64,000 bases of DNA from an uncultured cyanobacterium (GCA_963703315.1 OY969811.1:3776001-3840000), one strand, 5' to 3'. Numbered from the stretch's first letter, positions 17,688-51,723 are shown. The notes: generated by a model not told the origin, from the sequence alone. Translations and numbers: made by a program.

Positions 17688-19334
17688 CTAATGTTGCAAC
17701 AAGGCAGAACGAGGAATTACCCGCATAATCTCTTTGATAGTTGTTACTCCTTGTAAGACCTTCTCGATCGCGGCAACTCGAAAGGACTGAAAATCGATAC
17801 TGCGTAGGTAAAGATCTAGTTGCGTCGATGTACCTTCATAAATAATTTGACGCATCGTGTCATTGATTTCTAATAGCTCAATCACTGCTTCACGGCCCAA
17901 GTAACCCGTATGAAAACATTTAGGACATCCTTTGCCTTGTCTGCATTTTTCCAAATTAACTGTAGATCGGTCTAATCCAATCACTTTCAATTCGGCATCA
18001 CTAGGGACATATACTTCTGCACAGTGTGGACAAACACGGCGAACAAGGCGCTGAGCAATCACCCCTAACAAAGCATCACTAACTAGACTTGAGCCAAGAT
18101 CTTTAAGTCGAGGGATAGCACTAGGTGCATCGTTGGTATGCATAGTGGTCAAAACCAAGTGACCAGTCAACGCCGCCCGAATTGCAGTTTCTGCCGTCTC
18201 ACTATCGCGCACTTCGCCCACCATAATAATGTCGGGATCTTGGCGGAGAATTGAGCGTAATCCTGCGGCAAACGTCATACCTGCGGCTTCATTGACTTGG
18301 GTTTGAGTAATATTTGACAAGACATACTCCACAGGATCTTCGACAGTAGTGACATTGACGCTTTTAGAGGCAATTACTTGCAAACTGGTATAGAGCGTGC
18401 TAGTTTTCCCAGAACCAGTGGGACCAGTAAAAATGATCATTCCCTGTGGTTGATGTAGCCAGCTTTCATAGGTTTGACGTGACTTTTCCGTAAATCCTAG
18501 ATCGGCAATACTCGAAAAGGGATTTTCTTGTGGAAGTAACCGAATTACAATTTTTTCTCCATTAACGCAGGGAAGTGTACTAACACGCATATCTAATCCC
18601 TTAGCATGATGGTCGTCACTAGTATATTTTTCACCAATACGCCCATCTTGGGGAATCCGACTTTTGGCAATATCCATTTCTGCCATCACTTTAAGCGCAA
18701 CAATAATTTTGCGGCTAATTGCTAAAGGTAATACTTGAACATCTCGCAAAATACCATCAACACGAAAGCGAATCCGTAATCCTTCTTTGGTTGGCTCTAG
18801 ATGAATATCGCTAGCACGGCTCTGCAAAGCACTAGTAATTATTGCCTTGATACGACTGATTTGATCTGCTGCTTTGGAGAGATGCATTTCTGCTGTCTCT
18901 GCGATCGCCATTGGGGCAAGTTCATCGGCAAAGGGAATGTCTGTCTCTGATAGAGAAATGAGATCGTTGCGAATATTTTGTTTGAGAAACCATTCTTGAT
19001 AACTCTTTTTCGTAATTGATACGACTTCAACAGTCATGTCCATCAAGTTACTAATCCTCTTGATGTCCAGTTCTGAAATTGTCTCAGGAACCCCAATGAA
19101 AAAACATTTTTGCCATAATAGAAGTGGGATAGCCTTTGGTAATCCTGTCTGGTTACGAGCCTGACGCAAGAAGAGTCCACTCAATTCTGTGTCCAGCAAA
19201 TTAATGTTTACACTTCCATCTAAATTAACAAGTCTAGTGATTGCTTCTTCACATGATATTTTGCCAGTTTTAAGTAATTGCCAAGGGGTTGAGGGAACAA
19301 TAGATAAATTAGGTGTGGGGGATTTAGCTTGCAT
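17688..19334 (-). CDS. GspE/PulE/PilB-family secretion ATPase (paralogue)
   Basis: ASDIHLEP, PQDGR, Walker A GPTGSGKT, LRQDPDIIMVGEVRD, AALTGHLV, CPHC...CPKC; ATG at 19334 or TTG at 19352. Confidence 0.93.
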   Translation of the reverse strand: MQAKSPTPNLSIVPSTPWQLLKTGKISCEEAITRLVNLDGSVNINLLDTELSGLFLRQARNQTGLPKAIPLLLWQKCFFIGVPETISELDIKRISNLMDMTVEVVSITKKSYQEWFLKQNIRNDLISLSETDIPFADELAPMAIAETAEMHLSKAADQISRIKAIITSALQSRASDIHLEPTKEGLRIRFRVDGILRDVQVLPLAISRKIIVALKVMAEMDIAKSRIPQDGRIGEKYTSDDHHAKGLDMRVSTLPCVNGEKIVIRLLPQENPFSSIADLGFTEKSRQTYESWLHQPQGMIIFTGPTGSGKTSTLYTSLQVIASKSVNVTTVEDPVEYVLSNITQTQVNEAAGMTFAAGLRSILRQDPDIIMVGEVRDSETAETAIRAALTGHLVLTTMHTNDAPSAIPRLKDLGSSLVSDALLGVIAQRLVRRVCPHCAEVYVPSDAELKVIGLDRSTVNLEKCRQGKGCPKCFHTGYLGREAVIELLEINDTMRQIIYEGTSTQLDLYLRSIDFQSFRVAAIEKVLQGVTTIKEIMRVIPRSALLQH

Positions 19335-19371
19335 AGTTTCTGATAAGTTCAATATGGTTACTTACTAGATT

Positions 19372-19401
19372 CATTCTGTCGAGTTGATAGGTTCTATGCA
19401 G
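19372..19401 (-). promoter_or_regulatory. Putative alternative-sigma promoter, copy 1
   Basis: Minus strand CTGCATAG-N14-ACAGAATG, about 38 nt upstream of the ATPase ATG. Confidence 0.6.
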
Positions 19402-19502
19402 ACCTTACGAAAAAACTAGCGTCATGCTCATCTAAAATTCGTTATCGCGCCTAGCAAGTAGAAGATGTTTCTACCCATTAACTTGTACTCCTAAAAAAGA
19501 AA

Positions 19503-19558
19503 ATTAGGCAAGTGGTGATGTTTATTGAATTTTCAATAAACATCACCACTTGCCTAAT
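19503..19558. terminator. Perfect 27-bp-arm palindrome downstream of the lectin-peptidase gene
   Basis: ATTAGGCAAGTGGTGATGTTTATTGAA-TT-TTCAATAAACATCACCACTTGCCTAAT. Confidence 0.65.
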
Positions 19559-19626
19559 CTGTGGAGTAACTTGATGTATATAGTTTGGCTGATGAGAAGC
19601 AGCAAACTTTAAGCTTGCTCAGTATC

Positions 19627-20697
19627 CTAAGGACGTGTGAGGGCTTTTCTAAAGTGATCGTTTACACCAACAACATCTGGTAAATCACCAACTCCTATAA
19701 GCTGAAATCCATTAGCTGCTGTCATGGGGACTGAATTAGCATTACATAATGCATTAGGTCGTCCTTCAATATGAATATGAGAATAGCCACCATTAACAGA
19801 ACTTGCGCGGGAAACAACTCCCAATTGCTGACCAGCATTTACTCTTGCTCCATTAGCTACTTGGCGATCCATGTGACCAATCAATAAAGCACGGTTGTTC
19901 CCAATATCTAAACAAACCAAGTCTCTGTCAACATATCGAGCAGTACCAGCGGACGGAGCTAGAACAGGCTGCCCTGCTGATTTACTAGTATTGCCATCAT
20001 AAGCATAACAACCACTGGAACCAAAATCTTTATTAGTGATTGTGAGATCTAAACCAAAAATACTACGTCCTTTATGGCTAATACCATTGTTCTGATATCC
20101 TTGACAAACAAACCAAGTCTGACCACTTTTAAAAGGCAAGAGAATCTGTCCAGGAGGGGGAGGAACTATCGTTCCTCCGTTAATTTTGAACCTCTGATTC
20201 ACACCAGAATTGCATTGCCAGAGAGTGACTGCACCTCCATCATTACGAGTAGGACTGTCAATGCAGAATCGAACATTATTCCTGATCTCAGAAAGTCTAA
20301 TCTGGACATCACCGTTGGACAGGTTTTCAACATTGAAATTTTGGTCAAGATCATTGGCGTTACAGGGATAAACATTGACCTCAGCCCCATTCCATCGACG
20401 ATAGGCATTTAGGCATTTACCAGTGCTGCGCTGACGTAAAAGTTGACCGCCTCTAGCTCCTTGCAATCTATCAAAGTGTTGATCTGCATCATTAAAGTTG
20501 TGTGTCCAAATAGACATTCTTGGATGCCCGTCAATTAGACGGAAGTTACGATTAGTGTTAAGCGCTTTATTGCTATTATTAATGACAAAAGTTTCGGCAG
20601 ATGCAGCAGCACTGAGAATAGTAACTCCAGCGAGGATCGAAAAAGAACTGGCAACTAGTGCTAAACATTGTTTAGGATTCATAATACCTTTAGCCAT
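19627..20697 (-). CDS. Secreted ricin-type beta-trefoil lectin fused to an M23-like peptidase
   Basis: Signal peptide ending ASA; GKCLNA, YPCN..D.DQNF, FCID, WQCN..VNQRF lectin motifs; SH....GLD, VLAPSAG and HIH M23 motifs. Confidence 0.8.
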   Translation of the reverse strand: MAKGIMNPKQCLALVASSFSILAGVTILSAAASAETFVINNSNKALNTNRNFRLIDGHPRMSIWTHNFNDADQHFDRLQGARGGQLLRQRSTGKCLNAYRRWNGAEVNVYPCNANDLDQNFNVENLSNGDVQIRLSEIRNNVRFCIDSPTRNDGGAVTLWQCNSGVNQRFKINGGTIVPPPPGQILLPFKSGQTWFVCQGYQNNGISHKGRSIFGLDLTITNKDFGSSGCYAYDGNTSKSAGQPVLAPSAGTARYVDRDLVCLDIGNNRALLIGHMDRQVANGARVNAGQQLGVVSRASSVNGGYSHIHIEGRPNALCNANSVPMTAANGFQLIGVGDLPDVVGVNDHFRKALTRP

Positions 20698-20771
20698 AAT
20701 GATTAATACCTTGAAGTAGATTGAATTAGTTGAAGCAAAATATTAGAGGTGCGATTTTTGAGAGAAAATTG

Positions 20772-21080
20772 TTAGTTAATCCATCGTAGATTTTGAGCTT
20801 GAGAAGAAGAGATGCAAACTACATTTCCATCTTTCTCTCGACATACGACCTGATCGTTTTGAGTAAGAGTTTGCCATTTAGACCAATCGAAAAAGGTTGG
20901 AATAAAACCGACACTCTTATTTTGAGAGGGGTTTTCAATAAGGTTCCCATTAGCATCAGTAAATACAGATTCATCACCACCTCCAGCCAGAGCTTTTGGG
21001 GTATTGAAAATAATGCTAAGAAATCCAATAGATGATAGAAGTAGTAAACTTCTTTTAAGAGATACTTTGTTTGAGTACAT
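20772..21080 (-). CDS. Small secreted hypothetical protein
   Basis: 102 aa, signal peptide ending ALA, paired Cys (VCR...VCI), AGAGG Shine-Dalgarno upstream. Confidence 0.65.
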   Translation of the reverse strand: MYSNKVSLKRSLLLLSSIGFLSIIFNTPKALAGGGDESVFTDANGNLIENPSQNKSVGFIPTFFDWSKWQTLTQNDQVVCREKDGNVVCISSSQAQNLRWIN

Positions 21081-21239
21081 TCATAGATTCCTCTATATGA
21101 TGGTTAGCAAATTAAATGATTCAATGTTTATGAGTCCTTATTTCAGAACCTACATATTCTTTCTGTAAGGATTGAGAAGCTATACACTGAACTTAAATAT
21201 TTTTTGTTGAGTGGATTTGCTTCATCGCTTACATTTATT

Positions 21240-21269
21240 TCTTCTGTGGAGTTCATGGCACTTATGCAG
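21240..21269 (-). promoter_or_regulatory. Putative alternative-sigma promoter, copy 2
   Basis: Minus strand CTGCATAA-N14-ACAGAAGA upstream of the 21080 and 20697 genes. Confidence 0.6.
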
Positions 21270-21361
21270 CGATTAACTAAAAACTTTTTTTACTTGCTTT
21301 GTGAGTTGACAAAAATAGGAGAGTCTACAACCATTGCAGCCTCTCCTATGGGTTTACTAAT

Positions 21362-21571
21362 TTAGCGGAAGCCCTCAATAATGACCAGAATCAAAACTAG
21401 GCAAATCACTATAAACATGGTGCGCCATAGTCCAATTAAAAAGGTGGGTAATATTTCAATAACGATCGCATAGCCACCAAAAACTGTGGGTAAAATAAGA
21501 GCGATCGCTAGTCCTGCGATCGCAAACATCAGAAACTTAAGTAAATGAGGGACAAAACGCAACATAGACAT
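21362..21571 (-). CDS. Small two-TM membrane protein
   Basis: 69 aa, two hydrophobic helices, GGAG Shine-Dalgarno upstream. Confidence 0.6.
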   Translation of the reverse strand: MSMLRFVPHLLKFLMFAIAGLAIALILPTVFGGYAIVIEILPTFLIGLWRTMFIVICLVLILVIIEGFR

Positions 21572-21613
21572 AACAACTCCACAGATTGCCTGTTCCGATC
21601 CTTACGAGACTTA

Positions 21614-21641
21614 TATTCTGAGAGGTTATGGTTTTATTGCA
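21614..21641 (-). promoter_or_regulatory. Putative alternative-sigma promoter, copy 3
   Basis: Minus strand TGCA-N16-TCAGAATA, 43 nt upstream of the ATG at 21571. Confidence 0.55.
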
Positions 21642-21669
21642 TTGCTGATTGAGGCTAATTTGAACCCTA

Positions 21670-21699
21670 CTGCATAAAAGGCGATCGCTGATCAGAATA
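21670..21699 (+). promoter_or_regulatory. Putative alternative-sigma promoter, copy 4 (autoregulatory position)
   Basis: CTGCATAA-N14-TCAGAATA, about 50 nt upstream of the sigma ORF. Confidence 0.6.
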
Positions 21700-21748: not shown

Positions 21749-23239
21749 ATGCGATCGCTACAGTCAGTCATTTTTGAGCAGGGAAAGCGCATGAGCTTAG
21801 CAAAACGCAGTTTGAGAAAAAAATTTTCAACATTTAAAGGATCGGGATCGGAATGGAGCAGTCCAAATTCAACGCTACTAAAAAATATAGAAAGACTCCT
21901 AAATTTGGAAGACTTTCGTGATGCTAAGGAAGAAACTGTAGCTCTTTATTTCGTAAAGTGCCTGAGTAGTAGCAATGAAAAAGTTGTTGAACTAAGTCGC
22001 CAACACCTAATTGCTTATGCCCAAGAGCATTGCTATCATGCTTGCAAAGAGCTATGCAAGAAATTTAATAAGAACGAAAAAGACGAGATTTTTGAAGATT
22101 GTTTTCAAGCTGGCAATATGGCAATCTGTCAAGTTAATTTCTTTACTAATTACAGACCACAAAGTGGCAATACACTTGGGACTTACATTAGTAACGCAGT
22201 TAAGAAGAAAGCTATTGAAATCTTGACTGGCGGTGGGAATAATGTCAGAAGTAATTGGGGATTATTAGCTATTGTGTCAAAAAAACAAATAAAAGAAATT
22301 TTACCTTTAATCCCAGAAATATCTTCAGGTCGAGAACAGCAAAACTACATTCAAATACACAAATTCTATAAGGAAATTTGCAAACCTTCAAAAACTGGCA
22401 AGAAAAGAGAAAAACCATCTGAACAACAACTTCAAGCAATTTGTGATTGTTTCAATAAAGTTTACCCTCACAAACTACAAACTGAAGAAGCACTAGAAAT
22501 GCTCCGTGATTGTATTGCTGCACTTAGGGAACAACAGAATTTTATTGACTCACGAGGATTAGATGCGCCATTGGGGGGTGAAGATAATAGTACTTTGCTA
22601 ATTGATACTATCTCATACGATAGTGAGCCAAATATTATCGATGAAGGTGATGATTCTTACTTCGGATCAATTCGTGAAGGATTAGTTCAGATTGTTGCAC
22701 AAGACTTAGACTCGTTGGACAATGATAAACAAGGAAAATTCACTTTTTTGCATGGATTTGATTGTACGACAACTGAAGTTGCGAATCTTTATAAAGTAAA
22801 TCAATCAACTATCTCAAGGCTTTATAATCCAATTGTTGAGTCCTGCTTAAATTACAGCAAAACTTTTGTTAGTGATTTTACTGATGACACATTCTTAATT
22901 AAGGCTTTACGTGATTGGCTGAAGCAACATCTTGCATTTATTTACACTAGTTTGCTTTATGAAGTTGTCGATTCACTGGTTATGAGTCAATTGCATAAGA
23001 CAGAAATATCTTTTTTGAATGATTTGAGAGTAACTGGGAGGACGGAGCAATTGGCGCAAAATTTGAATCAATCAACAGAATATATAAATGAGGAAAGGAA
23101 AAGATTAAAAGATGCAATTACAGGACTGGTAGTTAATCATTTAAAAACCAATTTTAATATCCTTGCACCACTTTATCCTGTAGCTCCAAAAATTGATGAA
23201 TTTATCGATAAGTGGATGTGCGATCGCCCTACCAACTAA
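21749..23239 (+). CDS. Divergent sigma-70 family RNA polymerase sigma factor (DUF1822-associated type)
   Basis: Region-2-like HLIAYAQEHCY..EDCFQ, region-3-like LDAPLG, HTH TTTEVANLYKVNQSTISR; alternative start at 21791. Confidence 0.72.
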   Translation: MRSLQSVIFEQGKRMSLAKRSLRKKFSTFKGSGSEWSSPNSTLLKNIERLLNLEDFRDAKEETVALYFVKCLSSSNEKVVELSRQHLIAYAQEHCYHACKELCKKFNKNEKDEIFEDCFQAGNMAICQVNFFTNYRPQSGNTLGTYISNAVKKKAIEILTGGGNNVRSNWGLLAIVSKKQIKEILPLIPEISSGREQQNYIQIHKFYKEICKPSKTGKKREKPSEQQLQAICDCFNKVYPHKLQTEEALEMLRDCIAALREQQNFIDSRGLDAPLGGEDNSTLLIDTISYDSEPNIIDEGDDSYFGSIREGLVQIVAQDLDSLDNDKQGKFTFLHGFDCTTTEVANLYKVNQSTISRLYNPIVESCLNYSKTFVSDFTDDTFLIKALRDWLKQHLAFIYTSLLYEVVDSLVMSQLHKTEISFLNDLRVTGRTEQLAQNLNQSTEYINEERKRLKDAITGLVVNHLKTNFNILAPLYPVAPKIDEFIDKWMCDRPTN

Positions 23240-23283: not shown

Positions 23284-24744
23284 ATGATGTTAATTCTAAA
23301 AAATGGGCTTGAACTTGAATCTATTCTCGAAGACCAGATATGTTTATCTATTCCTAAAGAATATCAAACAGAAATATGGGATAAACTACAAGGATATTCC
23401 TATCCTACGGCAAAGTGGACAGCTTATCTCAATCGCTTGACTTTAGAGTTTATAATTCCATACTTTAAACAAACCTATGATTGTGAAATAGCACTGGCTC
23501 CAATTCCTAGAAATCCTGATAGTGTTTGGGAATATGTGACAGGCTTTGCGCTGACGATTGACGGTAACCGGGTAATCGTGATTCCTGATGAGACTGATAG
23601 TGATGAGTTTGAGATCCCCTTTGAATGGGTTGATATTCCTTCATGGGCTGGGGAATATTATCTAGCGGTGCAGATCCGTCCTGATAATGGTTGGTTGAGA
23701 GTCTTTGGCTTTACGACACATCAGCAGATTAAACAGAAAGCTGAGTATGACTCTGTGATGAAGACTTACACTTTGTCGCAGGAGCAAATCATTGATGATA
23801 TGGAGGTTTTGTTGACATCATTGGCGATCGCCTCTAACCAAAAAGTAGCAGTCCCCGCACTGACAGTGATCGCCACACCTCAACAGAATCAATATCTGAA
23901 TACTCTTAAACAGCCTAAATTATATTCTCCTCGCCTTGAGCTATCCGCCGAGCATTGGGCAACCGTTGTCAGTGATGATGACTTGCGGGAGAGACTATGG
24001 CAGATGAGAATAATTGAATCATCACGATCGCAGAAAATTGTGCAACAAAAAACAACTTGGCTAAGTCTATTGCGTGAAAAGCAGAAAGTATATGGGGCTT
24101 ACTTTGCTGATGAATTCATGAGAACTAAGGAAGAAATTGCGGCACTATTTAATATTGAACCAGAATTGCAACTTGTAAGGTCAGTAAGACGATCAACGTC
24201 AACTATTGATAACTCAGAGAGAGTTGCAGAATTAATTGCTTGGGATAAATCGGAATCTGATCTAGGTATTAGGCTTGACTTCTTAAAACTCTTAGCAAAA
24301 GTGGGTGAAGGCAGTAATGCAGCAATTGAGTACTTCAGTTCAATACAAGAAAATGAGACAGAGGATCTAACAATTCGCCGTGAGGCTGCAATTTGCTTGA
24401 GTGAGATTGATCCATCTCATCGTAATGCTGGTATCAGGCGGGTACAATTGATCGATATTACTTATCGACTTAAAGATATCAAGCTTTCTTTAGAAGTGAC
24501 GATGATCCCATTTACTCAAGATAGAGCGCACGTTCACTTTCGTTTAACTGCACCAGAAGAAAGTTCTTTGCCAGATGGTCTTGTTTTGGCAGCGATCGAC
24601 CTTGATAGTGATGTAATCTTTGAAGAACATAGTGGAGAATCAGATCCATTTTTGGAGAGAAGTCTTGATGAAGAATATGGTGGATATTTCTACATCAAAA
24701 TAAGTCTTGATGGTGTCAGCGTTCGGTCAGACTTTAGAGTTTAG
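23284..24744 (+). CDS. DUF1822 family protein with HEAT-like insert
   Basis: WTAYLNRL, SVWEYVTG, IPFEWVDIPSWAGEYYLAVQ, GFTTHQQIK; C-terminal LPDGLVL beta domain. Confidence 0.85.
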   Translation: MMLILKNGLELESILEDQICLSIPKEYQTEIWDKLQGYSYPTAKWTAYLNRLTLEFIIPYFKQTYDCEIALAPIPRNPDSVWEYVTGFALTIDGNRVIVIPDETDSDEFEIPFEWVDIPSWAGEYYLAVQIRPDNGWLRVFGFTTHQQIKQKAEYDSVMKTYTLSQEQIIDDMEVLLTSLAIASNQKVAVPALTVIATPQQNQYLNTLKQPKLYSPRLELSAEHWATVVSDDDLRERLWQMRIIESSRSQKIVQQKTTWLSLLREKQKVYGAYFADEFMRTKEEIAALFNIEPELQLVRSVRRSTSTIDNSERVAELIAWDKSESDLGIRLDFLKLLAKVGEGSNAAIEYFSSIQENETEDLTIRREAAICLSEIDPSHRNAGIRRVQLIDITYRLKDIKLSLEVTMIPFTQDRAHVHFRLTAPEESSLPDGLVLAAIDLDSDVIFEEHSGESDPFLERSLDEEYGGYFYIKISLDGVSVRSDFRV

Positions 24745-24753
24745 AGGTGTATT

Positions 24754-27270
24754 ATGAAAAGAATCTTTCAAAGCATATCAACTCTGTGGCAAAAATCTTT
24801 TGCTGGTTCTAGCTCACCATCACAAATTTTTCTAGGTTTGAAGGGTGAAGATGTTTTAGAATCGCCCAAAAATCCAAATGAGACTAAAAGTTTATCAGTT
24901 TCATTGTATGAGGGGCATTCTAGGATTATTGAAGATATTAACTTGCCTATTACAAAAGAGCTTTTGGATGTTATCAAACAATTTCCTACTCTTTTGGAAG
25001 GAAGAAATTCAGGCACTCCTAGAAAAGCTAAATCAACTGAAAACGAACAGACTAGCAGTAAGCAAACTGATGCCAGTAGTTCGTCTGATAAAATTGCTGA
25101 AAGGTTAGAGAATGTGATCAATGAATTAACTACTGGTCACAAGGGATTCAGAATAGTAAGAGATAAAATTCGTGACAAATTAGTTAATAGTCAATTGGCT
25201 TATAGTCTGCCACAACCAGAGTTTTTCATTCAATATAAAGATCCCAATATTGCTCAAATTCCATTCCATAAGTGGGAAATCTTAGAATCATTTGAGATCG
25301 AGCCTGTGTTTAGTGAATTTAATGTTAAACTTTGTGATCATTCTTACAGCAAGAGAAAAAATCCTCGCATCCTGATTGTTTTAGGTAATGCGTACAATCA
25401 TGGACAAGATAATCTTAACTTACAGGCTGATATTGAAGAATGGAAAGCTGATTCTCTACCTAATGTGGATATAACAACTATTACACCTTTGAATTATAAA
25501 GATATCGATTCTCAATTATGGGAAAAGAAATGGGACATTTTATATTTTGCAGGTCACAGTGATACTAAAAATGGTGAAACTCTGATTGAGCTTAATAACG
25601 AATTTAAAATAAGTTTAAAAAAACTGCAAGAGGGTCTAAAGATAGCAGTAAAGAAGGGCTTAAAATTAGCTATTTTCAATTCCTGCGTGAGTTTAGGGGC
25701 AGCAGCCGACCTACATCAAGCTGGTGTGCCAGCAGTTATAGCTATGCGTTATGCGATCCCTGATACTGTTGCTCATACTTTTCTGAAATTCTTCTTGCAA
25801 GAACATTTAAACGGAGGTAAATCGGTTAGTGCGGCAGTACAAAGAGTTAGAAAACGTTTTAAAGGGCTTGAAGATCAAGGTGATAAAACCTATATATTCG
25901 CTAGTTGGTTGCCTGTTGTTTTTCAAATTCCTAGTATTGCAAATCCTCCTAGAACTTCGCTGTTGCCAGTAATTGCCACCTCATTTTTTGTAACTTGCCT
26001 AGTTTTCTTTCTCCATACACAAGGCATATTTCAAGGAGCCGAGCTATCTCTATACGATCACATGATGAACTCTCGACCTGCCGAACCTCTCAATCCCAAT
26101 ATAATATTAGTGAAGCCAACACTAGCTGATCAAGTATGGCAGAAAGAACAAGGTGAACAATTGCAGGGGGATGAATCAATAGGTGATAAACATTTATGGA
26201 AACTACTGGAGAAATTAGATGAAGCGAAACCAAGAGTGATTGGTATGGCTCTTTGGCGAGGGTATTCAAAATCCGTAGATCCTGAGAGTAAAAAAAGAAT
26301 TGATAATAGGTTAGCAAGTACTCAATCGCCAATTTTAGTTTCTAATTGTGCAACTAGAACCAAAAATGATGAGCCAGATCGGCTTCCTCCTGAAACTATC
26401 AAACTTGGTCATCCTCATATTGGATTTACAAATTTTTCCATTGATAGATATTTTGACAATACCCTGAGAAGATTAGTATTGATTAGAAGAGATGATCAGA
26501 GTGCTTGCAGTAAACTCACCAATATTTCTTTCCCATTTCAAATTGTCTTAGACTATCTAGGAATATCATTTCAAGAAGTAATAGATGGATTAAAACCTTT
26601 AGAAGGGAAAGTAAGCATTGAGATGAAAGGTGTTTATCTTTCCAATATTACAACAAAGCAAGGTGGGTATCAAGTTAATCCTTCAGATGAAGGATTATCA
26701 AATCAACTAACAATTCTTTTTAATTACAAAAATCATGATGGTTACAGTCCCGATACAGATTACAACCAAATTTTTTCCTTAAAAGAAATTCTTTCCCTTG
26801 ACAAAGAATCATTGAAAGACATGGTTCACGATAAGATAGTTGTAATTGGTGGTTCTGGAGAAGAATCATTTAATTTCCCTTCCAGTAAGAGCAACATTAA
26901 ATCTATTGCACATTCATATGTTCATATTCAAGCTATTGATTATTTGTTGAGAATTTTTAATTCTAAAGGAGCCAAGATATTAGATATTCTCAAAAATAAT
27001 CTATTTCTTTTTTTGTATAGCTTACTTTATATATCGTTTGTATCAATTATCCTACAAATGATAATTCATAAGTTTGATAAACATCAATTTATTTCTTTGT
27101 CCATAGCAATTTTACTCGCCACGCTTATCATTTTTTATACTCATCAAATTATTTTGGCAAAATTATTATTATGGATTCCCTCTATACCAATACTATGGGG
27201 TATTATAGTCTCCAGTTTTGTTCTATCTTTTTACAAATTTATAAACATCTACTACAATAGAAATAATTAG
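24754..27270 (+). CDS. CHAT (caspase-like) protease - TM - CHASE2 sensor - 3 TM
   Basis: YFAGHS and LAIFNSC (His/Cys dyad), ASWLPV, ELSLYDHMM..RP, PRVIG, DKIVVIG; three C-terminal TM helices. Confidence 0.85.
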   Translation: MKRIFQSISTLWQKSFAGSSSPSQIFLGLKGEDVLESPKNPNETKSLSVSLYEGHSRIIEDINLPITKELLDVIKQFPTLLEGRNSGTPRKAKSTENEQTSSKQTDASSSSDKIAERLENVINELTTGHKGFRIVRDKIRDKLVNSQLAYSLPQPEFFIQYKDPNIAQIPFHKWEILESFEIEPVFSEFNVKLCDHSYSKRKNPRILIVLGNAYNHGQDNLNLQADIEEWKADSLPNVDITTITPLNYKDIDSQLWEKKWDILYFAGHSDTKNGETLIELNNEFKISLKKLQEGLKIAVKKGLKLAIFNSCVSLGAAADLHQAGVPAVIAMRYAIPDTVAHTFLKFFLQEHLNGGKSVSAAVQRVRKRFKGLEDQGDKTYIFASWLPVVFQIPSIANPPRTSLLPVIATSFFVTCLVFFLHTQGIFQGAELSLYDHMMNSRPAEPLNPNIILVKPTLADQVWQKEQGEQLQGDESIGDKHLWKLLEKLDEAKPRVIGMALWRGYSKSVDPESKKRIDNRLASTQSPILVSNCATRTKNDEPDRLPPETIKLGHPHIGFTNFSIDRYFDNTLRRLVLIRRDDQSACSKLTNISFPFQIVLDYLGISFQEVIDGLKPLEGKVSIEMKGVYLSNITTKQGGYQVNPSDEGLSNQLTILFNYKNHDGYSPDTDYNQIFSLKEILSLDKESLKDMVHDKIVVIGGSGEESFNFPSSKSNIKSIAHSYVHIQAIDYLLRIFNSKGAKILDILKNNLFLFLYSLLYISFVSIILQMIIHKFDKHQFISLSIAILLATLIIFYTHQIILAKLLLWIPSIPILWGIIVSSFVLSFYKFINIYYNRNN

Positions 27271-27306: not shown

Positions 27307-28134
27307 ATGGCTAGTAACATTTTCAAATTTCTTACTAAACACCCAACTGCCATCAAAATTCTATGTGTATCGATATACATGATTTTATTCAGTTTTATAC
27401 TAACTAAAGAAGATACTTTTGCAAATAAGAAGACCAAACCTTCACGTAGTCTACCAATTAAGTCAGTCGTATCAGATGGAAGCCAAGGTAGAACAAGAGG
27501 TGAATGCTTGATTATCCCAATCATTCCAATAACCGAAGTATCTATTACTCATTTGTCTAATCCGTTTATTTGGGTGTATGTAGTACCGCCCAAAACAACA
27601 AGTAATAATGAGCGGGCTAAGGTAGATATATTCTATTCTGATTCCAATCAAACTATAGGTTCAGAACCACAGTATATTAATACTAATGAGCCACAGTTCC
27701 TTAGATTCCAGATCCCTATTACCAGAAAGAAAGAACTTCAAAATAAACTGGAAGTAGATAAAGAGTATGATTTCAACATTAGATGTAATGGAGATGGCAA
27801 CTCTATCATTGTAGCAGTTCAGAAAAAGAATAGTAATATTTCGTTTGCTAATCTGCCATTAGATAAGCGCGTAGTAGAATTTAGCAAGCAGACTTGGTGG
27901 GCTGAGACTGTAGATGCTCTGTTTGATAAAGAATTTTTATGTAAAGATAAACCAAACACAGTAGAGCTATTTGATGATCTTGTTCGTAATAAGCTACTAA
28001 TTGAAGATGTATTCAATAAACCAGTTCGAGCAATAGCAGCAAATCCTACTGAAGATGTTGATATTGTGAATATTGATAGGATGGTTAGAACATTCAATGA
28101 AGCCTATTCTAAGAAGATCTGTATCCCAAAGTAA
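27307..28134 (+). CDS. DUF928-like exported protein
   Basis: N-terminal hydrophobic segment; GRTRGEC, PFIWVYV and WWAETVDAL resemble DUF928 motifs; follows the CHASE2 gene. Confidence 0.6.
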   Translation: MASNIFKFLTKHPTAIKILCVSIYMILFSFILTKEDTFANKKTKPSRSLPIKSVVSDGSQGRTRGECLIIPIIPITEVSITHLSNPFIWVYVVPPKTTSNNERAKVDIFYSDSNQTIGSEPQYINTNEPQFLRFQIPITRKKELQNKLEVDKEYDFNIRCNGDGNSIIVAVQKKNSNISFANLPLDKRVVEFSKQTWWAETVDALFDKEFLCKDKPNTVELFDDLVRNKLLIEDVFNKPVRAIAANPTEDVDIVNIDRMVRTFNEAYSKKICIPK

Positions 28135-28192: not shown

Positions 28193-29461
28193 CTACCAAG
28201 GGTTCCCGATGAGTGTAAAGGCGCTCCACGAAGATGGATGAGATAGCTTTGGATCTTTGGATAGACTAAGGCTAAGTTGCGTATTTTTTAAAGCATTGGC
28301 TTTGATGATTTTAGTATTAAATTTAAGTTCTTGATATAACTTTTCCATAAAAACAGGGGATTCTTTATCTCCTATTTTCCATAAAGTGCCAATTACAGAC
28401 TGTACACCTATTCTTGCAGCTAATCCTGCAAATCCCTGTTCTGATTTGATATTGCCTTGAGCCGTTTGACAAGCACTAAGAACAAGCATAGCTACTGTAG
28501 GATTATTCCAATTAAATTGACGAATCTCATTAAAACTAAATGAACCATTTTTAAAGTATATTTCTCCAATCCCATTTGTCTCATTAAATTTAGCATGAGT
28601 GGCTAGATGAATAAGACCAAATCCAATCGGATTATATAATTTGTCTTTTACTTGCTCAATATCTTGATTTAAATTTTGTTGTGTCATCCATATTTTAGTA
28701 ATCTTGGTTAGCTCTTCTGGAACACCAGGTAACTGCGTTTGTGATATGGGTTTTTCAAATCTAGACGCTCCAATTGCTAGGAGATTTTTATCGTGTATGC
28801 TAGAGAGCCTTGTATCAGTTAAAGATAAGCTTGGCATTACCCCAACGCTGTAATCCGAAATAATATAATTATTCTGTTCATTGATCAAAGCAGCAAATGG
28901 TGTTTGTCGTAATGCATCAGGTAAGACAAGAGTGAGATTATCAATAGCTTGATTTTTTAAAGAATCATATAATGGCTTGATGAGCCATCGGTATAATTGC
29001 TTAGAGGAATCTATATGCTTTGTTTGATTTCTAGGATTGTAGTTAGATATATTTGTTCTGAAATTCTCGACACGATCTTTTAAATCCTTTCTGCGGATAT
29101 ATTGACCAGAATCTTTAACAGGAATATACGCAGGTTTGCCTTTGGCGGTTACTAGGGTTAGTTCTAGAATATCGCAAGAGTCAACGTCTTTAGTAGTTTC
29201 TAGCTTGACTGGTTCAGGATATGGGAGGGTGGAATTAATTGGAGGATTGTAACAAGGATCTTTAGGATCGCGTTGCGCCTTCCGATCGCCCATTCGATCA
29301 GGAAGGAAAGTTACATAGAGTAAAGCAGGATTCACTCCAGTTTCATTTTGCACACGGCGCAAGGTTTCTTGGATTTCTGCAAGTGTCATCACCTTAACTG
29401 GTTTGAGATCGGGAATAGAGTCGCTGAAAAACTTTTCAAACTCTCTGGTGTAAAACTCTTC
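28193..29461 (-). CDS. CHAT domain; C-terminal part of a frameshifted TpsA-CHAT fusion
   Basis: QLYRWLIKP, IHLATHA, LVLSACQTAQG, GTLWKI, WSAFTLIGNPW; frame stays open upstream of the GTG at 29392 (EEFYTREFEKFF...). Confidence 0.85.
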   Translation of the reverse strand, partial: EEFYTREFEKFFSDSIPDLKPVKVMTLAEIQETLRRVQNETGVNPALLYVTFLPDRMGDRKAQRDPKDPCYNPPINSTLPYPEPVKLETTKDVDSCDILELTLVTAKGKPAYIPVKDSGQYIRRKDLKDRVENFRTNISNYNPRNQTKHIDSSKQLYRWLIKPLYDSLKNQAIDNLTLVLPDALRQTPFAALINEQNNYIISDYSVGVMPSLSLTDTRLSSIHDKNLLAIGASRFEKPISQTQLPGVPEELTKITKIWMTQQNLNQDIEQVKDKLYNPIGFGLIHLATHAKFNETNGIGEIYFKNGSFSFNEIRQFNWNNPTVAMLVLSACQTAQGNIKSEQGFAGLAARIGVQSVIGTLWKIGDKESPVFMEKLYQELKFNTKIIKANALKNTQLSLSLSKDPKLSHPSSWSAFTLIGNPW

Positions 29462-32400
29462 GGGGGGAAGGGGGCGCGATCGCCTTCATCTACCCACTGC
29501 ACTCTAGGCGGCTCTTTGAGTGGCTGTGTTGCTAAGAAAATCGTGAAATTTGGGGCGGTGATAATCTGGATATTACCCTGTGTATAGGGACCTGGAAACG
29601 ATCGCGCTGTAAAGATGGTGTTTCCTGCGCCAGTAGTCAGAACTCCATCAGTTCCATTAATCAAGGAGCTAAAGACATTAAAAGGCTCAAACCTTGTGCC
29701 GCCGTCATGACGAATGATAATCACCCCGTCTCCTGCTGTCCCTGCGGTACTGATACTGGCTACCAATCCATTTTGGTCAATGAAAGTACCACTAATCCTA
29801 ACAAACCGATTCGATGTCAGATCGACAGTCCCGCCAACACCTCCAAACCCTTGAGCATTGATCGCCCCAGTGAATATATCTAAGAGAGGATCGAGGAAGA
29901 TATTACCGCCACTGCCTGATAATCCCACAGCACTGAGAGTTCCAGTTGTGATGGAGGTGAGTGCTTGGATGTTGATGTTACCGCCCGATGTGCCATTGAC
30001 ATTGAGATTGCCTGTATTGACGATGCCCTGTGGTGCTAATAGGGTCAGGCTATTCCCAGCCCCCACCGCAGAGGCGAGGTTGATATCTTGAGTGGTGACG
30101 TTGCCTGTGGCTGCGTTGATGGTGAGATTGGCGGCGGTTCCTGCTTGAATGTTGATGGGCGCAACAATATTAATATCGCCATTGAGGGTGCTGAGGGTGG
30201 AAGTACCTGTAATTGTAGTGGGATTGGAGATCTGCAAGCCATTAGTTGTGTTAATGCCGCCTGACATAGAGATATTGCTGGCATTGAGGCTGATGGTAAT
30301 TAGGCGATCGCTTGCTCCAAGTGCGCCATTGAGATTAATGTTGCCAGTACCAGCATCGAGTGTTAATCCAAAGTTATTTCCAGTCAGACTATTAACAGTT
30401 CCATTGGTGCTAATGTCGCCGTTATTGCTATTGATTGCGATGTTTGTGCCAAGTCTTGTATTGCCCGTGAGTGTTAGTGCTTGACCAGTAGTTGTGATAT
30501 CAGCATTGAGATTAATCCCTACTGGAGATATTAAAGTGGCTGAAGTGTTGAATGTGATCGGAGCAGTAACTGAGATACTGCCAACACTAGCATCACCAAT
30601 GGAAAGCATTACACCAGTAATCGAGGCGATCGCAGTTGATGTCAGGTTAAATGAGTTGGAATCTGTACCACCTAAAACGATATTTCGATTTGCTGAACTA
30701 GGTTTTAAGATGAGAGTATTCGTTCCAGTAATCGGTGCGGTTAAATTGATCTGATCAGCAATCGCTGATACAGCATTACCTCCTGCGGCAAGTCCTCCAT
30801 TGAGTGAGATAGTTCCAGTTCCTGCATTGAGGGTTGATGCTGCTGTAGTAGTTAGCAATGAGTTAAGAGTAATATCGCTATTAGCTGTAGTGATATTGCC
30901 TTTCAGGTTTGTGGTTTGGGCGGCTATCGTCACTCCTGTGAGGGGAGTTGTACTTCCAATTGCTCCTTGTAAGTCAACAGTTCCTGTATTGGCGATTATA
31001 TTGAGAATTTTTGCGCCATCAATGGTACTAGTAAAGGTGATATTTCCGCTATTTATCGCACTAGTATTTAGGGTGACTTGAGGTTGGATTTTAGAAGCCA
31101 AAGATGTATCTAAGTTTGGATTTAGCAATGGATCTAGAATAAATTTGCCATCAAAAGTAATATTTCCTCCTGCTATGCCTAAACTAGAACCTGTGACTAT
31201 GGATTGTACAAAAGTAGGATTACTGGAATCTTGAACAAAATAAGCACCGATAGTTCCATTTCTTGCACTTAGAGAAACATCTCCACCTCTACCAGAATAT
31301 GAGCTAGAGTTTAAGTTAAATACGGTGATATTGCCTTCAGAACTAGTGATATTTATATTACTTGCGGTCTGATTGTTGTTATAACTTACATCTGTGGCGA
31401 TGCCTCCTAGTCCAGTAACGATATCTCCTTTTGCTTCTATTCTCACCGTTCCAGAATTACGGATTGCAGTACTTGCTGCTGCTACGCTTTGACTATCAGC
31501 ACCAGCATCTAAGATAGAGTTACCGTTCATCGTGATAGAGCCATTGGGACTCAATAACTCTATATTGCCTGCCCGAAGACTAACGGCTATATCTGTACTT
31601 TGGGGAAAGGTCTCAACCCCACATTTACCTGCTAATGTAGTTGCACAACTAAACAAGATATTTCCATTATTTGCTTTGACAGATACATCTGCTCCATTAC
31701 CAGATTGAGAAAATGCTCTTAATAGACCCTCAACAGTTACACTTCCTGCGGATTCAATGCTAATTTTCCCAGCATTGCCACCCAATACAGAGGCAGGTGT
31801 AGATATAGAGGAGGCGGTTGTATCAATGGATGTTACCGTAATATTTCCTGTTGTAGTCTTGAGACTAAATGCTCCTGAATCTCTGCCTCCAGAAGTCTGT
31901 AAGCCCCCAGAAGTTGCTGAAGCATTGTTTACATTAAGATTGATATTGTCAAAAGCATTAATAGATACTGCTCCCCCCTGACCACTGGCGGATCTGGTAA
32001 ATATGCCTCTGCTATTAGACATATTGATATTTCCGTTCGTACTCGTGATTGTAACATTACCCGAATCCCTACCATTATTAAATTCTAATGCTGTACTTAT
32101 AAACCCAGTTTCTATATTTATGTCATCTCTAGCTGATAAGGTTATTGAGCCTGTGATGCCATCACTACCTGAAGCGGCATTAAGCGCCGCATTATTACGC
32201 ATAAAGATAGAACCATTTTCGCTTTTTATGCTAATATTCCCAGAATTACCAAGACCTGATAAAGGAGCGGCAGCAGCTCCTGGAAAAGTTTCCACACCAC
32301 AAGCTCCTGCGTACAGACTGGTACAATTAAATGAGATATTTCCATTTGCATTGACTAAAACATCGCCACCATTAGCAAAATCAGAAAAAGCACGCAATAG

Positions 32401-34242
32401 AACACTAACTGTAAAATCTCTCTTAGAATCAATTGTGATATTGCCAGCATTCCCACCTCCTAGACCAAGAGAGACAACATCAATTCCTGCTATTGTAATG
32501 TCACCTGCCGTAGTTTTAAGATTGATACTTCCTGCATTACCTTCTGCCCCAAAAGTACGAGCAAGAATAGTACCAGCAGTTATATTTGCTGCTTCTATTG
32601 TAATATTTCTTCCTCTAGCTTGCAAATAGCTATTCGAGGGCATCGAAAAAGTTCCTCCTGCTGCTTTAAAATTTACTAAGCCAGTTCCAGTTTGAAAAGT
32701 TAATACTGGAGAAAGACCTATATTTGACTCAACTAAAGATTCAGTAAGGGGTCCAATCGTAATATTATTGGTTGCTTCAAGAATAATATTTTGGTTTGAA
32801 GCTAATGCTTCAAGTGTTGCTTGGCTAATAGTGATAGTTCCAGAAAGATCGGTTTCAAAAATATCAGGCAAGCCTCCATCTATAACTGGAACACCTGCTG
32901 AATCAAGCACATTATTTGCAATAATAATATTGTCAGGATCGAGCAATAATGTACCTCCTTTTCCGATCGCTGCATTAAGATCGACTTTTCCATCAAAAAC
33001 AAGATTCTGTTTACCTGAAACCTCAACAAAACCACCATCACCAGAAATTGCTCCCCCACGCGCACTAATACTTCCAAAAAACCTCGCCGCATTATCCGCC
33101 CATACAATTACTCTCCCTCCATTACCAGACTGCAACGCATCCGCCTTAATCGTCGAATCTGCACTCACAAAAGTCATCAACGCATTCGGGATTACTCCCT
33201 TACCCTGAAAATCCCCACCAATAAATACCGAGCCACCACCATTCACACCCGAAGCATCGATATTTGCACTCACTAAACCAACGCGATCGCCTAATATCTG
33301 AATCTTAGGCGTAACTTGAGAAGGATTAACCACAGTCGAAGCAACCGACACATTCCCACTCACGATCGCAGTTCCCGCCGTATTCGGAATCACCGTCTGT
33401 GAATTGGTTAATTGCGCTTGCCCCTGACTATTCAGCGATATACCCGAACTACTATCCAGCTTGCCAGTAGTTAACAAACTGGGCAGATCCAAAGCTTTAA
33501 CTGGTAAGTCATTGCCTTGAGCATCCTTTGGTTGTGGAAACTCAAAACTTAACCCCTCCACCCCGACATTTAGCCGCAACCGACCATCAGGTATAGCGAC
33601 AATGCCAACCGAACCATTAGGCGCAGAGATGGTTCCCGTATTCACCACAGTTGACGCGGCAAGAGTTACCGACTTGCCCTCATCAACTGTCAGATTGCCA
33701 GAGTTAACGATCGCAGCAGGATTATTCGGATCAAACTCTAAACCAGTCAGGTTGCCTGTCAGATTGCTGTAATTAGGATTATAAATATCCAGATTGCGAT
33801 CGCCAAACCAAGCAGTTCTCGCTGTCGATGCTGTGAAACTCCCATTAACATTTAGTTGAGCATTATTACCAAAAATGAAACCCGCAGGATTTAACAGATA
33901 TAAATTCGCATTCGAGCCTGTCACCTGAATAGTGCCATTAATCACCGAAGGATCGCCCCCAGTCACCCCACCAAGTATATTCTGCACCTGTGGCAACACT
34001 ACAAAATTAGCCGTTTGACCAGTCTGGACATTAAACCCTTGGAAACTGTGAAAGACATTTGCGCCATTTCCTGACGTAGTTCCGCCCCTAATATCAATCC
34101 GATCTCCATTTGGCAAAACTACCGTTCCCGTTCCGTTATTTGCAGGCACGATCTGCACTTGCGCGATCGCAGGCAAAGCTTGAAAAATTTGTAAAGAAAA
34201 TGCAACAAATAAAACCCGAAGCCCATTCATAGCTAAGCGCAT
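29389..34242 (-). CDS. Filamentous haemagglutinin family TpsA exoprotein (N-terminal part)
   Basis: Signal peptide ending AIA-Q; TPS domain NVFHSF..FNV and NLYLLNPAGFIFG; GGFVEVSG, GTLLLDP; beta-helix repeats. Confidence 0.92.
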   Translation of the reverse strand: MRLAMNGLRVLFVAFSLQIFQALPAIAQVQIVPANNGTGTVVLPNGDRIDIRGGTTSGNGANVFHSFQGFNVQTGQTANFVVLPQVQNILGGVTGGDPSVINGTIQVTGSNANLYLLNPAGFIFGNNAQLNVNGSFTASTARTAWFGDRNLDIYNPNYSNLTGNLTGLEFDPNNPAAIVNSGNLTVDEGKSVTLAASTVVNTGTISAPNGSVGIVAIPDGRLRLNVGVEGLSFEFPQPKDAQGNDLPVKALDLPSLLTTGKLDSSSGISLNSQGQAQLTNSQTVIPNTAGTAIVSGNVSVASTVVNPSQVTPKIQILGDRVGLVSANIDASGVNGGGSVFIGGDFQGKGVIPNALMTFVSADSTIKADALQSGNGGRVIVWADNAARFFGSISARGGAISGDGGFVEVSGKQNLVFDGKVDLNAAIGKGGTLLLDPDNIIIANNVLDSAGVPVIDGGLPDIFETDLSGTITISQATLEALASNQNIILEATNNITIGPLTESLVESNIGLSPVLTFQTGTGLVNFKAAGGTFSMPSNSYLQARGRNITIEAANITAGTILARTFGAEGNAGSINLKTTAGDITIAGIDVVSLGLGGGNAGNITIDSKRDFTVSVLLRAFSDFANGGDVLVNANGNISFNCTSLYAGACGVETFPGAAAAPLSGLGNSGNISIKSENGSIFMRNNAALNAASGSDGITGSITLSARDDINIETGFISTALEFNNGRDSGNVTITSTNGNINMSNSRGIFTRSASGQGGAVSINAFDNINLNVNNASATSGGLQTSGGRDSGAFSLKTTTGNITVTSIDTTASSISTPASVLGGNAGKISIESAGSVTVEGLLRAFSQSGNGADVSVKANNGNILFSCATTLAGKCGVETFPQSTDIAVSLRAGNIELLSPNGSITMNGNSILDAGADSQSVAAASTAIRNSGTVRIEAKGDIVTGLGGIATDVSYNNNQTASNINITSSEGNITVFNLNSSSYSGRGGDVSLSARNGTIGAYFVQDSSNPTFVQSIVTGSSLGIAGGNITFDGKFILDPLLNPNLDTSLASKIQPQVTLNTSAINSGNITFTSTIDGAKILNIIANTGTVDLQGAIGSTTPLTGVTIAAQTTNLKGNITTANSDITLNSLLTTTAASTLNAGTGTISLNGGLAAGGNAVSAIADQINLTAPITGTNTLILKPSSANRNIVLGGTDSNSFNLTSTAIASITGVMLSIGDASVGSISVTAPITFNTSATLISPVGINLNADITTTGQALTLTGNTRLGTNIAINSNNGDISTNGTVNSLTGNNFGLTLDAGTGNINLNGALGASDRLITISLNASNISMSGGINTTNGLQISNPTTITGTSTLSTLNGDINIVAPINIQAGTAANLTINAATGNVTTQDINLASAVGAGNSLTLLAPQGIVNTGNLNVNGTSGGNINIQALTSITTGTLSAVGLSGSGGNIFLDPLLDIFTGAINAQGFGGVGGTVDLTSNRFVRISGTFIDQNGLVASISTAGTAGDGVIIIRHDGGTRFEPFNVFSSLINGTDGVLTTGAGNTIFTARSFPGPYTQGNIQIITAPNFTIFLATQPLKEPPRVQWVDEGDRAPFPPKSFTPESLKSFSATLFPISNQLR

Positions 34243-51135: not shown

Positions 51136-51723
51136 ATGAAATCTGAATTCAAGACTAAGCTCATTCAACACATTCTCAACAAGAAAAATGGTGAAAAAGG
51201 TTTCACCTTGATCGAACTTCTCGTTGTTATCATCATCATCGGTATTCTTGCAGCGATCGCTCTTCCTTCCTTCTTGAACCAAGCATCTAAAGCTCGCCAA
51301 TCTGAAGCCAAAACCTATACTGGTTCAGCAAACCGTTCTCAACAAGCCTACTACCTAGAGAAGCAACAATTTGCTCCTGACCTTCCTGCTTTGGCTCTAG
51401 GTATTGCTGGAACTACAGATAACTATGCATATGCTACTACTGGTTCTAGTAAAGGTGCAACATTGACTAACGCCAATGCCTTTAGCCTTGCTAGCCCAAG
51501 AGCTACAAACCTGAAAGGTTATGTTGGTGCTGTAAGTGTGTCTACTCCTGCTGGTAGTAATGAAGCTACAACTTTAGCCACTTTGGGAGAAGCTTCACTT
51601 GCTTCAGTTAACGGAGGCAACGCTGTTGCGACCAACCTTGCTATCACTGATGCATTTACCATTTCCACTACTCAAGCTCCAGCAGTTGTTACTGGTAACT
51701 CTGGATTTGTTGCGGTTAACTAA
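51136..51723 (+). CDS. pilA: Major type IV pilin
   Basis: MKSEFKTKLIQHIL..EKG/FTLIELLVVIIIIGILAAIALPSFLNQ, SEAK, NRSQQAYY; Ser/Thr-rich body. Confidence 0.92.
   Translation: MKSEFKTKLIQHILNKKNGEKGFTLIELLVVIIIIGILAAIALPSFLNQASKARQSEAKTYTGSANRSQQAYYLEKQQFAPDLPALALGIAGTTDNYAYATTGSSKGATLTNANAFSLASPRATNLKGYVGAVSVSTPAGSNEATTLATLGEASLASVNGGNAVATNLAITDAFTISTTQAPAVVTGNSGFVAVN

Follow-up and report, generated by a model that had tools for sequence, protein, structure and literature searches.

The locus described here lies in a 64-kb window (the whole stretch of DNA analysed) of the closed 4.57-Mb genome of an uncultured cyanobacterium, cyanobacterial also by its relatives and gene content and labelled G000; other genomes carry labels of the form G### and other loci L###. 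It contains a gene for a divergent sigma-70-family protein with the operon behind it, three units on the opposite strand, and copies of a bipartite motif that is probably the promoter read by this sigma factor. The features are as follows, by position in the window.

21670..21699, plus strand: motif copy 1, CTGCATAA-N14-TCAGAATA; probably the promoter through which the sigma operon is autoregulated, best match genome-wide, kept in G021 and G028
21614..21641, minus strand: motif copy 2, TGCAATAA..TCAGAATA; upstream of the 69-aa membrane open reading frame (ORF), kept in G021
21240..21269, minus strand: motif copy 3, CTGCATAA-N14-ACAGAAGA; precedes the 102-aa ORF and the lectin-M23 gene
21159..21186, minus strand: weak copy 4, TGTATAG..ACAGAAAG; in tandem with copy 3
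19372..19401, minus strand: motif copy 5, CTGCATAG-N14-ACAGAATG; precedes the PilB-like ATPase gene, kept in G021 and G029, with a CTGAA form in G012
21791..23239, plus strand: protein of 482 aa when counted from the ATG at 21791, a divergent member of the sigma-70 family; its ORF is open from 21749
23284..24744, plus strand: DUF1822 protein (PF08852, E 9e-62), soluble, without a hydrophobic segment; candidate anti-sigma factor
24754..27270, plus strand: predicted sensor protease, CHAT (caspase-like)-transmembrane (TM)-CHASE2-3 TM (Pfam)
27307..28134, plus strand: DUF928 protein with an N-terminal hydrophobic segment
21362..21571, minus strand: small membrane protein of 69 aa, likely target; 81-90% identical in G021 and G028
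20772..21080, minus strand: 102-aa protein, likely target; signal-peptide-like start by eye, 67% identical in G021
19627..20697, minus strand: exported ricin-B-type lectin with M23 peptidase (Pfam), likely target
17688..19352, minus strand: PilB/GspE-family ATPase, an accessory paralogue, likely target

A preliminary description of this DNA had claimed four motif copies and a weak one; all coordinates and strands were verified, including the weak copy at 21159-21186. As had also been claimed, every copy points toward a start codon on its own strand, 20 to 160 nt away: 92 nt for the sigma ATG, 43 nt for the 69-aa membrane ORF, 160 and 79 nt for the 102-aa ORF (copies 3 and 4) and 20 nt for the TTG of the PilB-like gene. 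The motif is non-palindromic, strand-polarised and spaced like -35 and -10 elements. CAGAA is unchanged in all six sites known in this genome, five in the window and one distant. The spacers, which had been called unrelated and conserved in length, are fixed at 16-17 nt and are weakly alike, with a mean identity of 36% over the six sites; a single C, 5 nt before CAGAA, is common to all of them. A scan of the divergent TPS/ShlB region of the window gave no copy of the motif.

The loose pattern of the preliminary description occurs four times in the window against a mean of 0.94 in shuffled sequences, and four was reached by one of 100 shuffles; by itself its rarity in the window is only moderate. 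Genome-wide, TGCA..CAGAA pairs show no preferred spacing. The strict form CTGCATA-N16-CAGAA lies far above chance: it occurs three times in 4.57 Mb, all three inside 2.3 kb of this locus, where 0.0004 would be expected per 2.4 kb. Once one copy defines the motif, the probability of two further strict copies is about 1e-7, before correcting for the free choice of motif.

A weight matrix was built from 12 training sites taken from other genomes only, seven of them from same-genus relatives, and was used to scan the whole genome. The three strong window sites took ranks 1, 2 and 4, the distant site took rank 3, and these four were the only strong intergenic matrix sites in 4.57 Mb. The distant (trans) site lies at G000:4557146, 760 kb away and about 110 nt upstream of a giant RTX metalloprotease gene (G000:C1:4557146-4565174, L206), an ORF of more than 2600 aa that has RTX repeats and a zinc motif of the M10 type and runs off the contig end. 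Homologues of this ORF were found in five of the 47 genomes of the genus, two with the motif upstream: the site is retained in G028 (two tandem copies) and G052, and absent in G058, G031 and G045. Genus-wide counts of the exact pattern (46 of 48 genomes) were discarded as evidence, with 23 of 32 examined matches lying inside ORFs.

Full-length relatives of the sigma factor are present in two of the 47 other genomes of the genus and in three genomes from other genera of the family. G021 retains all five copies. In G028, copies 1 and 3 still have their two boxes across insertions of 86 nt and about 150 nt, the copy-3 spacer being 2 nt shorter; copies 2 and 4 of G028 have one box altered, and in copy 2 the first box is intact while the second now reads CCAGAATA. 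Copy 4 reads TGCA..ACAGAA in G021 and G049, and both boxes of copy 3 are also kept in G049. In G012, which belongs to another genus and whose sigma factor is 21-23% identical, the layout is the same, the sigma gene being faced by an M23 gene, the gene of a small protein and pilB; three TGCATAAA..CTGAA copies precede the sigma gene, the M23 gene and pilB. The CTGAA form also precedes the sigma gene in G003 and at a second G012 locus. A pattern-based locus search using a single protein gave one weak, unrelated match. Since the motif precedes four neighbouring units and recurs beside related sigma genes in other cyanobacteria, it is likely to be the promoter of this sigma factor.

By profile and fold the window protein belongs to the sigma-70 family, and a function with RNA polymerase is predicted. 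It scores 43.0 bits against TIGR02937, whose cut-off is 42.9, and all 67 aligned family members match this profile at E<=0.001; Pfam region 4 was found in 42 and region 2 in 10 of the 67. In FliA and SigA chains, the family profile matches both region 2 and region 4. An AlphaFold model (predicted local distance difference test, pLDDT, 87; predicted template modelling score, pTM, 0.49) places sigma-2 near residues 47-147 and sigma-4 near 290-357. The protein has extra segments at its N terminus, between the domains and at its C terminus: about 140 mostly helical residues (147-290) separate the two modelled domains, and the C-terminal tail has 120 residues. The model aligns with sigma-2 folds at Z 8.7-9.2 (root-mean-square deviation, rmsd, 2.6-3.0 Å, 93-104 residues aligned) and with region 4 of sigmaE at an rmsd of 3.0 Å over 67 columns, while whole-chain scores are modest (best Z 9.8). 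Under the strict definition of sigma factors with extracytoplasmic function (ECF), as quoted in the passages seen of PMC11119718, sigma-2 and sigma-4 are less than 50 aa apart; the insert of about 140 residues exceeds this group 4 spacing. A bipartite motif does stand upstream of the protein's own gene (21670-21699), as in ECF systems. The system resembles ECF systems in its working mode, yet falls outside the strict spacing definition.

This is the sole sigma factor of its kind, and the DUF1822 protein the sole one, found in G000. The sigma factor is 34-37% identical to its G021 and G028 orthologues, evenly along the protein. CHAT-CHASE2 (36-38%) and DUF928 (29-30%) are as diverged, and for other neighbours the identity to same-genus orthologues is 58-62% (DUF1822), 81-90% (membrane ORF) and 92% (PilB). 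The G+C content of the sigma operon is 35% versus 41%. This uneven divergence and the low G+C content suggest module swapping or diversifying selection.

For a wider comparison we used 107 DUF1822 loci, 100 from a listing for 151 genomes and seven found earlier. A sigma-like ORF lies upstream in 97 of them (56 long, 41 short), and the other 10 were left out, as were four class-level loci whose genomes had been used before and any site that overlaps a sigma start codon. Clades were taken from a quick tree, which did not place the window clade, and the clade boxes were first read by eye. DUF1822 occurs in 98 of the 151 genomes sampled from the phylum, with up to 11 per genome. A CHAT-like gene comes next after it in at least 31 of the 55 long loci and 33 of the 40 short ones. 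Separately, in family f24, 49 of 57 small genomes (1.6-2.3 Mb; a different class of the same phylum) each have one weak DUF1822 match.

The non-coding DNA of the sigma loci carries TGCATAR and, at a near-constant distance, a second box that is specific to the clade: CAGAA, CTGAA, CAGGAA, TACCCAT, CGATA, a shorter-spaced AGAAT, TCGTA or CCTAT. Paralogous loci in one genome differ in this box (TCGTA, CCTAT and GGAAT in G129; ACCCA in G205). TGCATAR occurs within -400 to +10 of 35 of the 56 long sigma starts, 20 times in sense, some antisense matches overlapping the sigma ATG, and within 400 nt of nine of the 41 short ones; the background is 11% (4.8% sense) of 3781 G000 ORFs and four of 99 distal genes. 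Most members conserve the sigma-4 helix Q-x-x-(V/I)-S-R. In five training loci the helix reads Q-P-T-(V/I)-x-R instead (Pro in second place); none of the five has a TGCATAR site, and they represent at most two or three independent events. A word-pair enrichment, TGCA-N18-TGAA (17 of 56 loci), was dropped because the coding start M-Q-P-R-Q..I-I-E accounted for most of it.

Under an objective rule that accepts a site only if an ORF follows on the same strand at 30-400 nt, 29 of the 56 long loci yielded 44 sites. Pairs of sites shared a 5-mer more often in the second-box window than in the spacer: 12 versus 3 of 24 pairs within a locus, 14 versus 5 of 52 where the sigma factors are at least 50% identical, 23 versus 6 of 55 at 35-50% identity, 8 versus 2 of 84 at 28-35%, and 39 versus 11 of 731 below 28%. 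The background is 1.9% for both windows, and in each identity class the second box exceeds the spacer about three- to fourfold. Second-box sharing drops from 42-50% (same locus or 35-50% identity) to 5% (below 28%), with 27% in the class of at least 50% identity. In 64 held-out loci from new genomes, the box was found on the divergent strand in 19, against a shuffle mean of 3.1 and a maximum of 8 in 300 shuffles. By the count of the same shuffle test, a sense-strand box upstream of the sigma gene was found in only one of the 64; with an ORF-based start call, a sense site was present in both members of about 550 aa and in none of the 62 of about 400 aa. On these held-out strand counts, the first box is a property of the family, and self-activation a property of its longer clades.

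Taken with the window sites, this comparison of sequences leads us to read the motif as the cognate -35/-10 promoter of the adjacent sigma factor, which would be autoregulated and control a six-site regulon of mostly exported proteins; we put the probability of this reading at about 0.8. The preliminary description had proposed recognition by the adjacent sigma factor, with autoregulation and a local regulon, and the comparative evidence supports it with two amendments. The sixth site, in trans, makes the regulon not purely local. Autoregulation is upheld for sigma factors of about 480-600 aa such as that of the window, and not for most relatives of about 400 aa.

Several observations weigh against this interpretation. 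Motif copies occur in three genomes in which the family profile detected no such sigma factor, namely G029 (pilB-like gene), G049 (two boxes) and G052 (trans gene); these are draft genomes, 91-99% complete and in 60-750 contigs. No site was found in 27 of the 56 training loci under the objective rule, or within 400 nt in 41 of the 64 held-out loci. Blind prediction of the second box was applicable in three loci only, and was correct in two. The 12 sharing pairs within a locus come from four loci, two of them orthologous, and kin are not independent. In the unfiltered within-locus test, second box and spacer did not separate (3.93 versus 3.87), so local duplication accounts for part of the likeness; after removal of five repeat-like or close-kin loci, the values were reached by 96 and 23 of 2000 shuffles. 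Moreover, because the window sigma factor shares only 34-37% identity with orthologues whose second box is the same, overall sigma divergence does not predict that box.

Instead, a different sigma factor of the cell (SigF, SigG, SigJ, a HetZ-like protein or another ECF) might read the promoter and have the adjacent sigma-like gene as just one of its targets. This would suit the copies without a detected cognate sigma in the three drafts, the TGCATAR near nine of 41 short DUF1822-linked sigmas, and the three to four CCCTGATA-type copies in L123, L124 and L129. A core sigma factor, however, would be expected to have a genome-wide regulon, whereas only the four strong intergenic sites were found in 4.57 Mb and the genus-wide exact matches examined lie mostly inside ORFs (23 of 32). 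The second box also differs among paralogous loci of one genome (G129, G205), and neither the J-box of SigJ (GGGaAtacT, PMC6495340) nor the TCCGGA of HetZ (PMC13342950) stands at these promoters. No full copy of either element was found in the seven upstream regions scanned; hexamers GGGTAG/GGGTAA lie 76 and 183 nt upstream of two motif copies. We consider reading by another sigma factor unlikely.

More doubtful still is a role as an operator, not a core promoter, bound by some activator or repressor that might be the sigma-like protein itself, working without polymerase. The narrow margin of 0.1 bit over the sigma-70 cut-off, the large insertions and the modest whole-chain fold score would fit such a protein, but both sigma-2 and sigma-4 folds are present, and the sites are polarised toward starts with a fixed spacing of 16-17 nt, one copy ending 20 nt before a start codon. 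A third explanation, that the copies are relics of a duplicated promoter region or of a small repeat and carry no sigma-specific meaning, draws on spacers that are more alike within than between loci and on tandem copies (copies 3 and 4 in the window, the doubled trans site of G028). It seems very improbable: the boxes are invariant while the spacers are 36% alike, another genus has the same layout with a different second box, and the held-out loci show strand-specific enrichment.

If the motif is the promoter of the adjacent sigma factor, with TGCATA[A/G] as -35 and [A/T]CAGAA as -10, this protein would transcribe its own operon, the three divergent units and the distant RTX-metalloprotease gene. 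Sigma-4 would use its conserved Q-x-x-(V/I)-S-R helix to read the first box, which is constant; the clade-specific second box may be read by a part of the protein that varies, either sigma-2 or the insertions, as in HetZ. DUF1822 would keep the sigma factor inactive until the membrane CHAT-CHASE2 protease, sensing an outside signal, frees it by cleavage. By analogy with CASP-sigma/Csx30/Csx29 (parts of PMC10028731) and the protease proposal of Kaur et al. (parts of PMC8195603), we rate this role of DUF1822 and its release step at roughly even odds. In the CHAT-CHASE2 protein the His and Cys motifs are intact (FAGHS at 265, FNSC at 308), and TM segments lie at 401, 748, 776 and 799. Positive feedback would then induce exported cell-wall hydrolases, lectins and RTX proteins together with a dedicated PilB-type motor; such output types suggest antagonism or envelope defence.

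Among the likely targets, the 102-aa protein matched no family in the Pfam scan. Two further PilB paralogues in the genome are 61% and 52% identical to the window ATPase. A type IV pilin-like ORF (GFTLIELL) lies about 32 kb from this paralogue, at G000:C1:3827136-3827723 (window about 51136-51723, plus strand); its sole tie to the motif is a low-scoring coding match in the matrix scan. The hydrolase slot behind the motif is variable, being lectin-M23 in the window, lectin-CHAP in G021, M23-SH3 in G012 and also M23-lectin (window 19627-20697; L010:5598-7031; L011:5416-6249; L207:893-1993). Orphan target clusters with intact boxes, for which no sigma cassette was found, are L209 (G049:C43) and L207 (G029:C56); that of G049 looks like a remnant, with pilB in two pieces and ShlB directly adjoining. 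Beyond DUF928, and converging with it, lie the TPS-domain protein and a CHAT ORF, with ShlB and a kinase farther on. These two ORFs, at window 28193-34242 (minus strand), are in different frames and share 4 nt near 29390, the TPS-domain ORF having 1617 aa and the CHAT ORF 399 aa; because G021 and G028 have a single protein of 1768-1969 aa, the exported TPS-CHAT gene of the window appears to be split by a lesion or an assembly error.

Elsewhere, 18 genes downstream of sites encode five RTX proteins, one subtilase, one peptidoglycan-binding protein, one Nif11 leader, one DUF928 protein and nine proteins without a family. In one clade of about 390 aa (L074-L079, L083), the divergent promoter has its first box, on the other strand, across the sigma ATG; this box is directed at an exported protein of 263 aa, 73-89 nt away, which is conserved and for which Pfam gave no family. 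TCGTA-type sites at L084:4368-4532 and L088:5531-5833 lie upstream of short peptide-precursor-like ORFs, one a Nif11 leader (Pfam) and one of 55 aa that we take to resemble type II lanthipeptide precursors, hinting at clusters for ribosomally synthesised and post-translationally modified peptides under TCGTA-clade sigma factors. The short (about 250 aa) DUF1822-linked sigma factors of L123, L124 and L129 have three to four near-identical TGCATAAA..CCCTGATA copies upstream, and in L123 these precede an RTX protein of 1190 aa.

Tentatively, these loci could form a large cyanobacterial family of protease-gated, insertion-bearing sigma factors that share a -35 element (TGCATAR) and are insulated by swapped -10 elements. 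Each paralogue might fire its private exported hydrolases, RTX proteins or peptide precursors on a signal from its own membrane caspase-like sensor, a modular promoter code for outside-in antagonism or defence, here with a dedicated PilB-type motor. The cassette sigma-DUF1822-CHAT/CHASE2-DUF928 is of a type already catalogued in 2021. New from this locus are the pattern of constant -35 and variable -10, the strand test on held-out loci, and two targets, the RTX gene in trans and PilB. Literature searches, with subscription journals outside their coverage, found no description of the motif and no experiment on the sigma-DUF1822-caspase cassette; the main texts of PMC7826278 and PMC11119718, as far as seen and apart from their supplements, name neither DUF1822 nor CHAT. 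Among published start-site tables, TGCATAA is absent from the supplements seen of PMC4143802 and PMC3610870, and the promoter file of PMC6495340 has eight occurrences, none convincingly placed as a -35. A defined promoter makes this widespread cassette testable by reporter and names its outputs, namely exported peptidoglycan hydrolases, lectins, an RTX metalloprotease and an accessory PilB. The natural series of -10 variants bears on how insertion-bearing cyanobacterial sigma factors such as HetZ choose promoters, and is a possible source of orthogonal sigma/promoter pairs for cyanobacterial engineering.

Classical autoregulated ECF/anti-sigma pairs such as RpoE-RseA and DdvS-DdvA have, like the window system, an autoregulatory bipartite promoter, a small regulon and an adjacent inhibitor gene. 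Unlike the classical ECF proteins, the window sigma factor is more than twice the usual length, its candidate inhibitor is soluble, and the predicted protease is a separate membrane protein. Closer in composition are the EACC2-caspase neighbourhoods with ECF sigma and DUF1822 in the computational catalogue of Kaur et al. (2021, eLife, PMC8195603), which in the passages seen proposes protease activation and a transcriptional output. Like the window, they combine sigma, DUF1822 and a caspase-like (CHAT) sensor in one operon, and the catalytic His and Cys are present in the window protein. The passages seen contain no promoter, regulon or experiment, whereas the window adds the motif, its targets and the clade-variable second box.

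Like the window protein in its model, HetZ of Anabaena 7120 is described, in the parts seen of Hu et al. (2026, PNAS, PMC13342950), as a sigma factor that is 400-500 aa long, bears insertions at both termini and internally, and has boxes 16-17 bp apart; it is ECF-like and co-transcribed with a putative anti-sigma factor, PatU3. The modelled insertion layout is similar to i1, i2 and i3 of HetZ, with no HetZ entry among the matches listed. HetZ reads -35 TCCGGA and -10 TGnA and gave 546 chromatin immunoprecipitation (ChIP) peaks, in contrast to TGCATAR/CAGAA and about six sites here. The type III-E CRISPR system CASP-sigma/Csx30/Csx29 (Strecker et al. 2022, PMC10028731, seen in part) likewise joins a CHAT protease, an anti-sigma factor and a sigma factor resembling the ECF type. 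It is triggered by an RNA-guided complex, whereas the window sensor is a predicted membrane CHASE2 protein and no cas gene was seen in the annotated stretch. As in the window system, CASP-sigma has several motif copies (three) in its own locus, and the rest of the genome carries one strong site.

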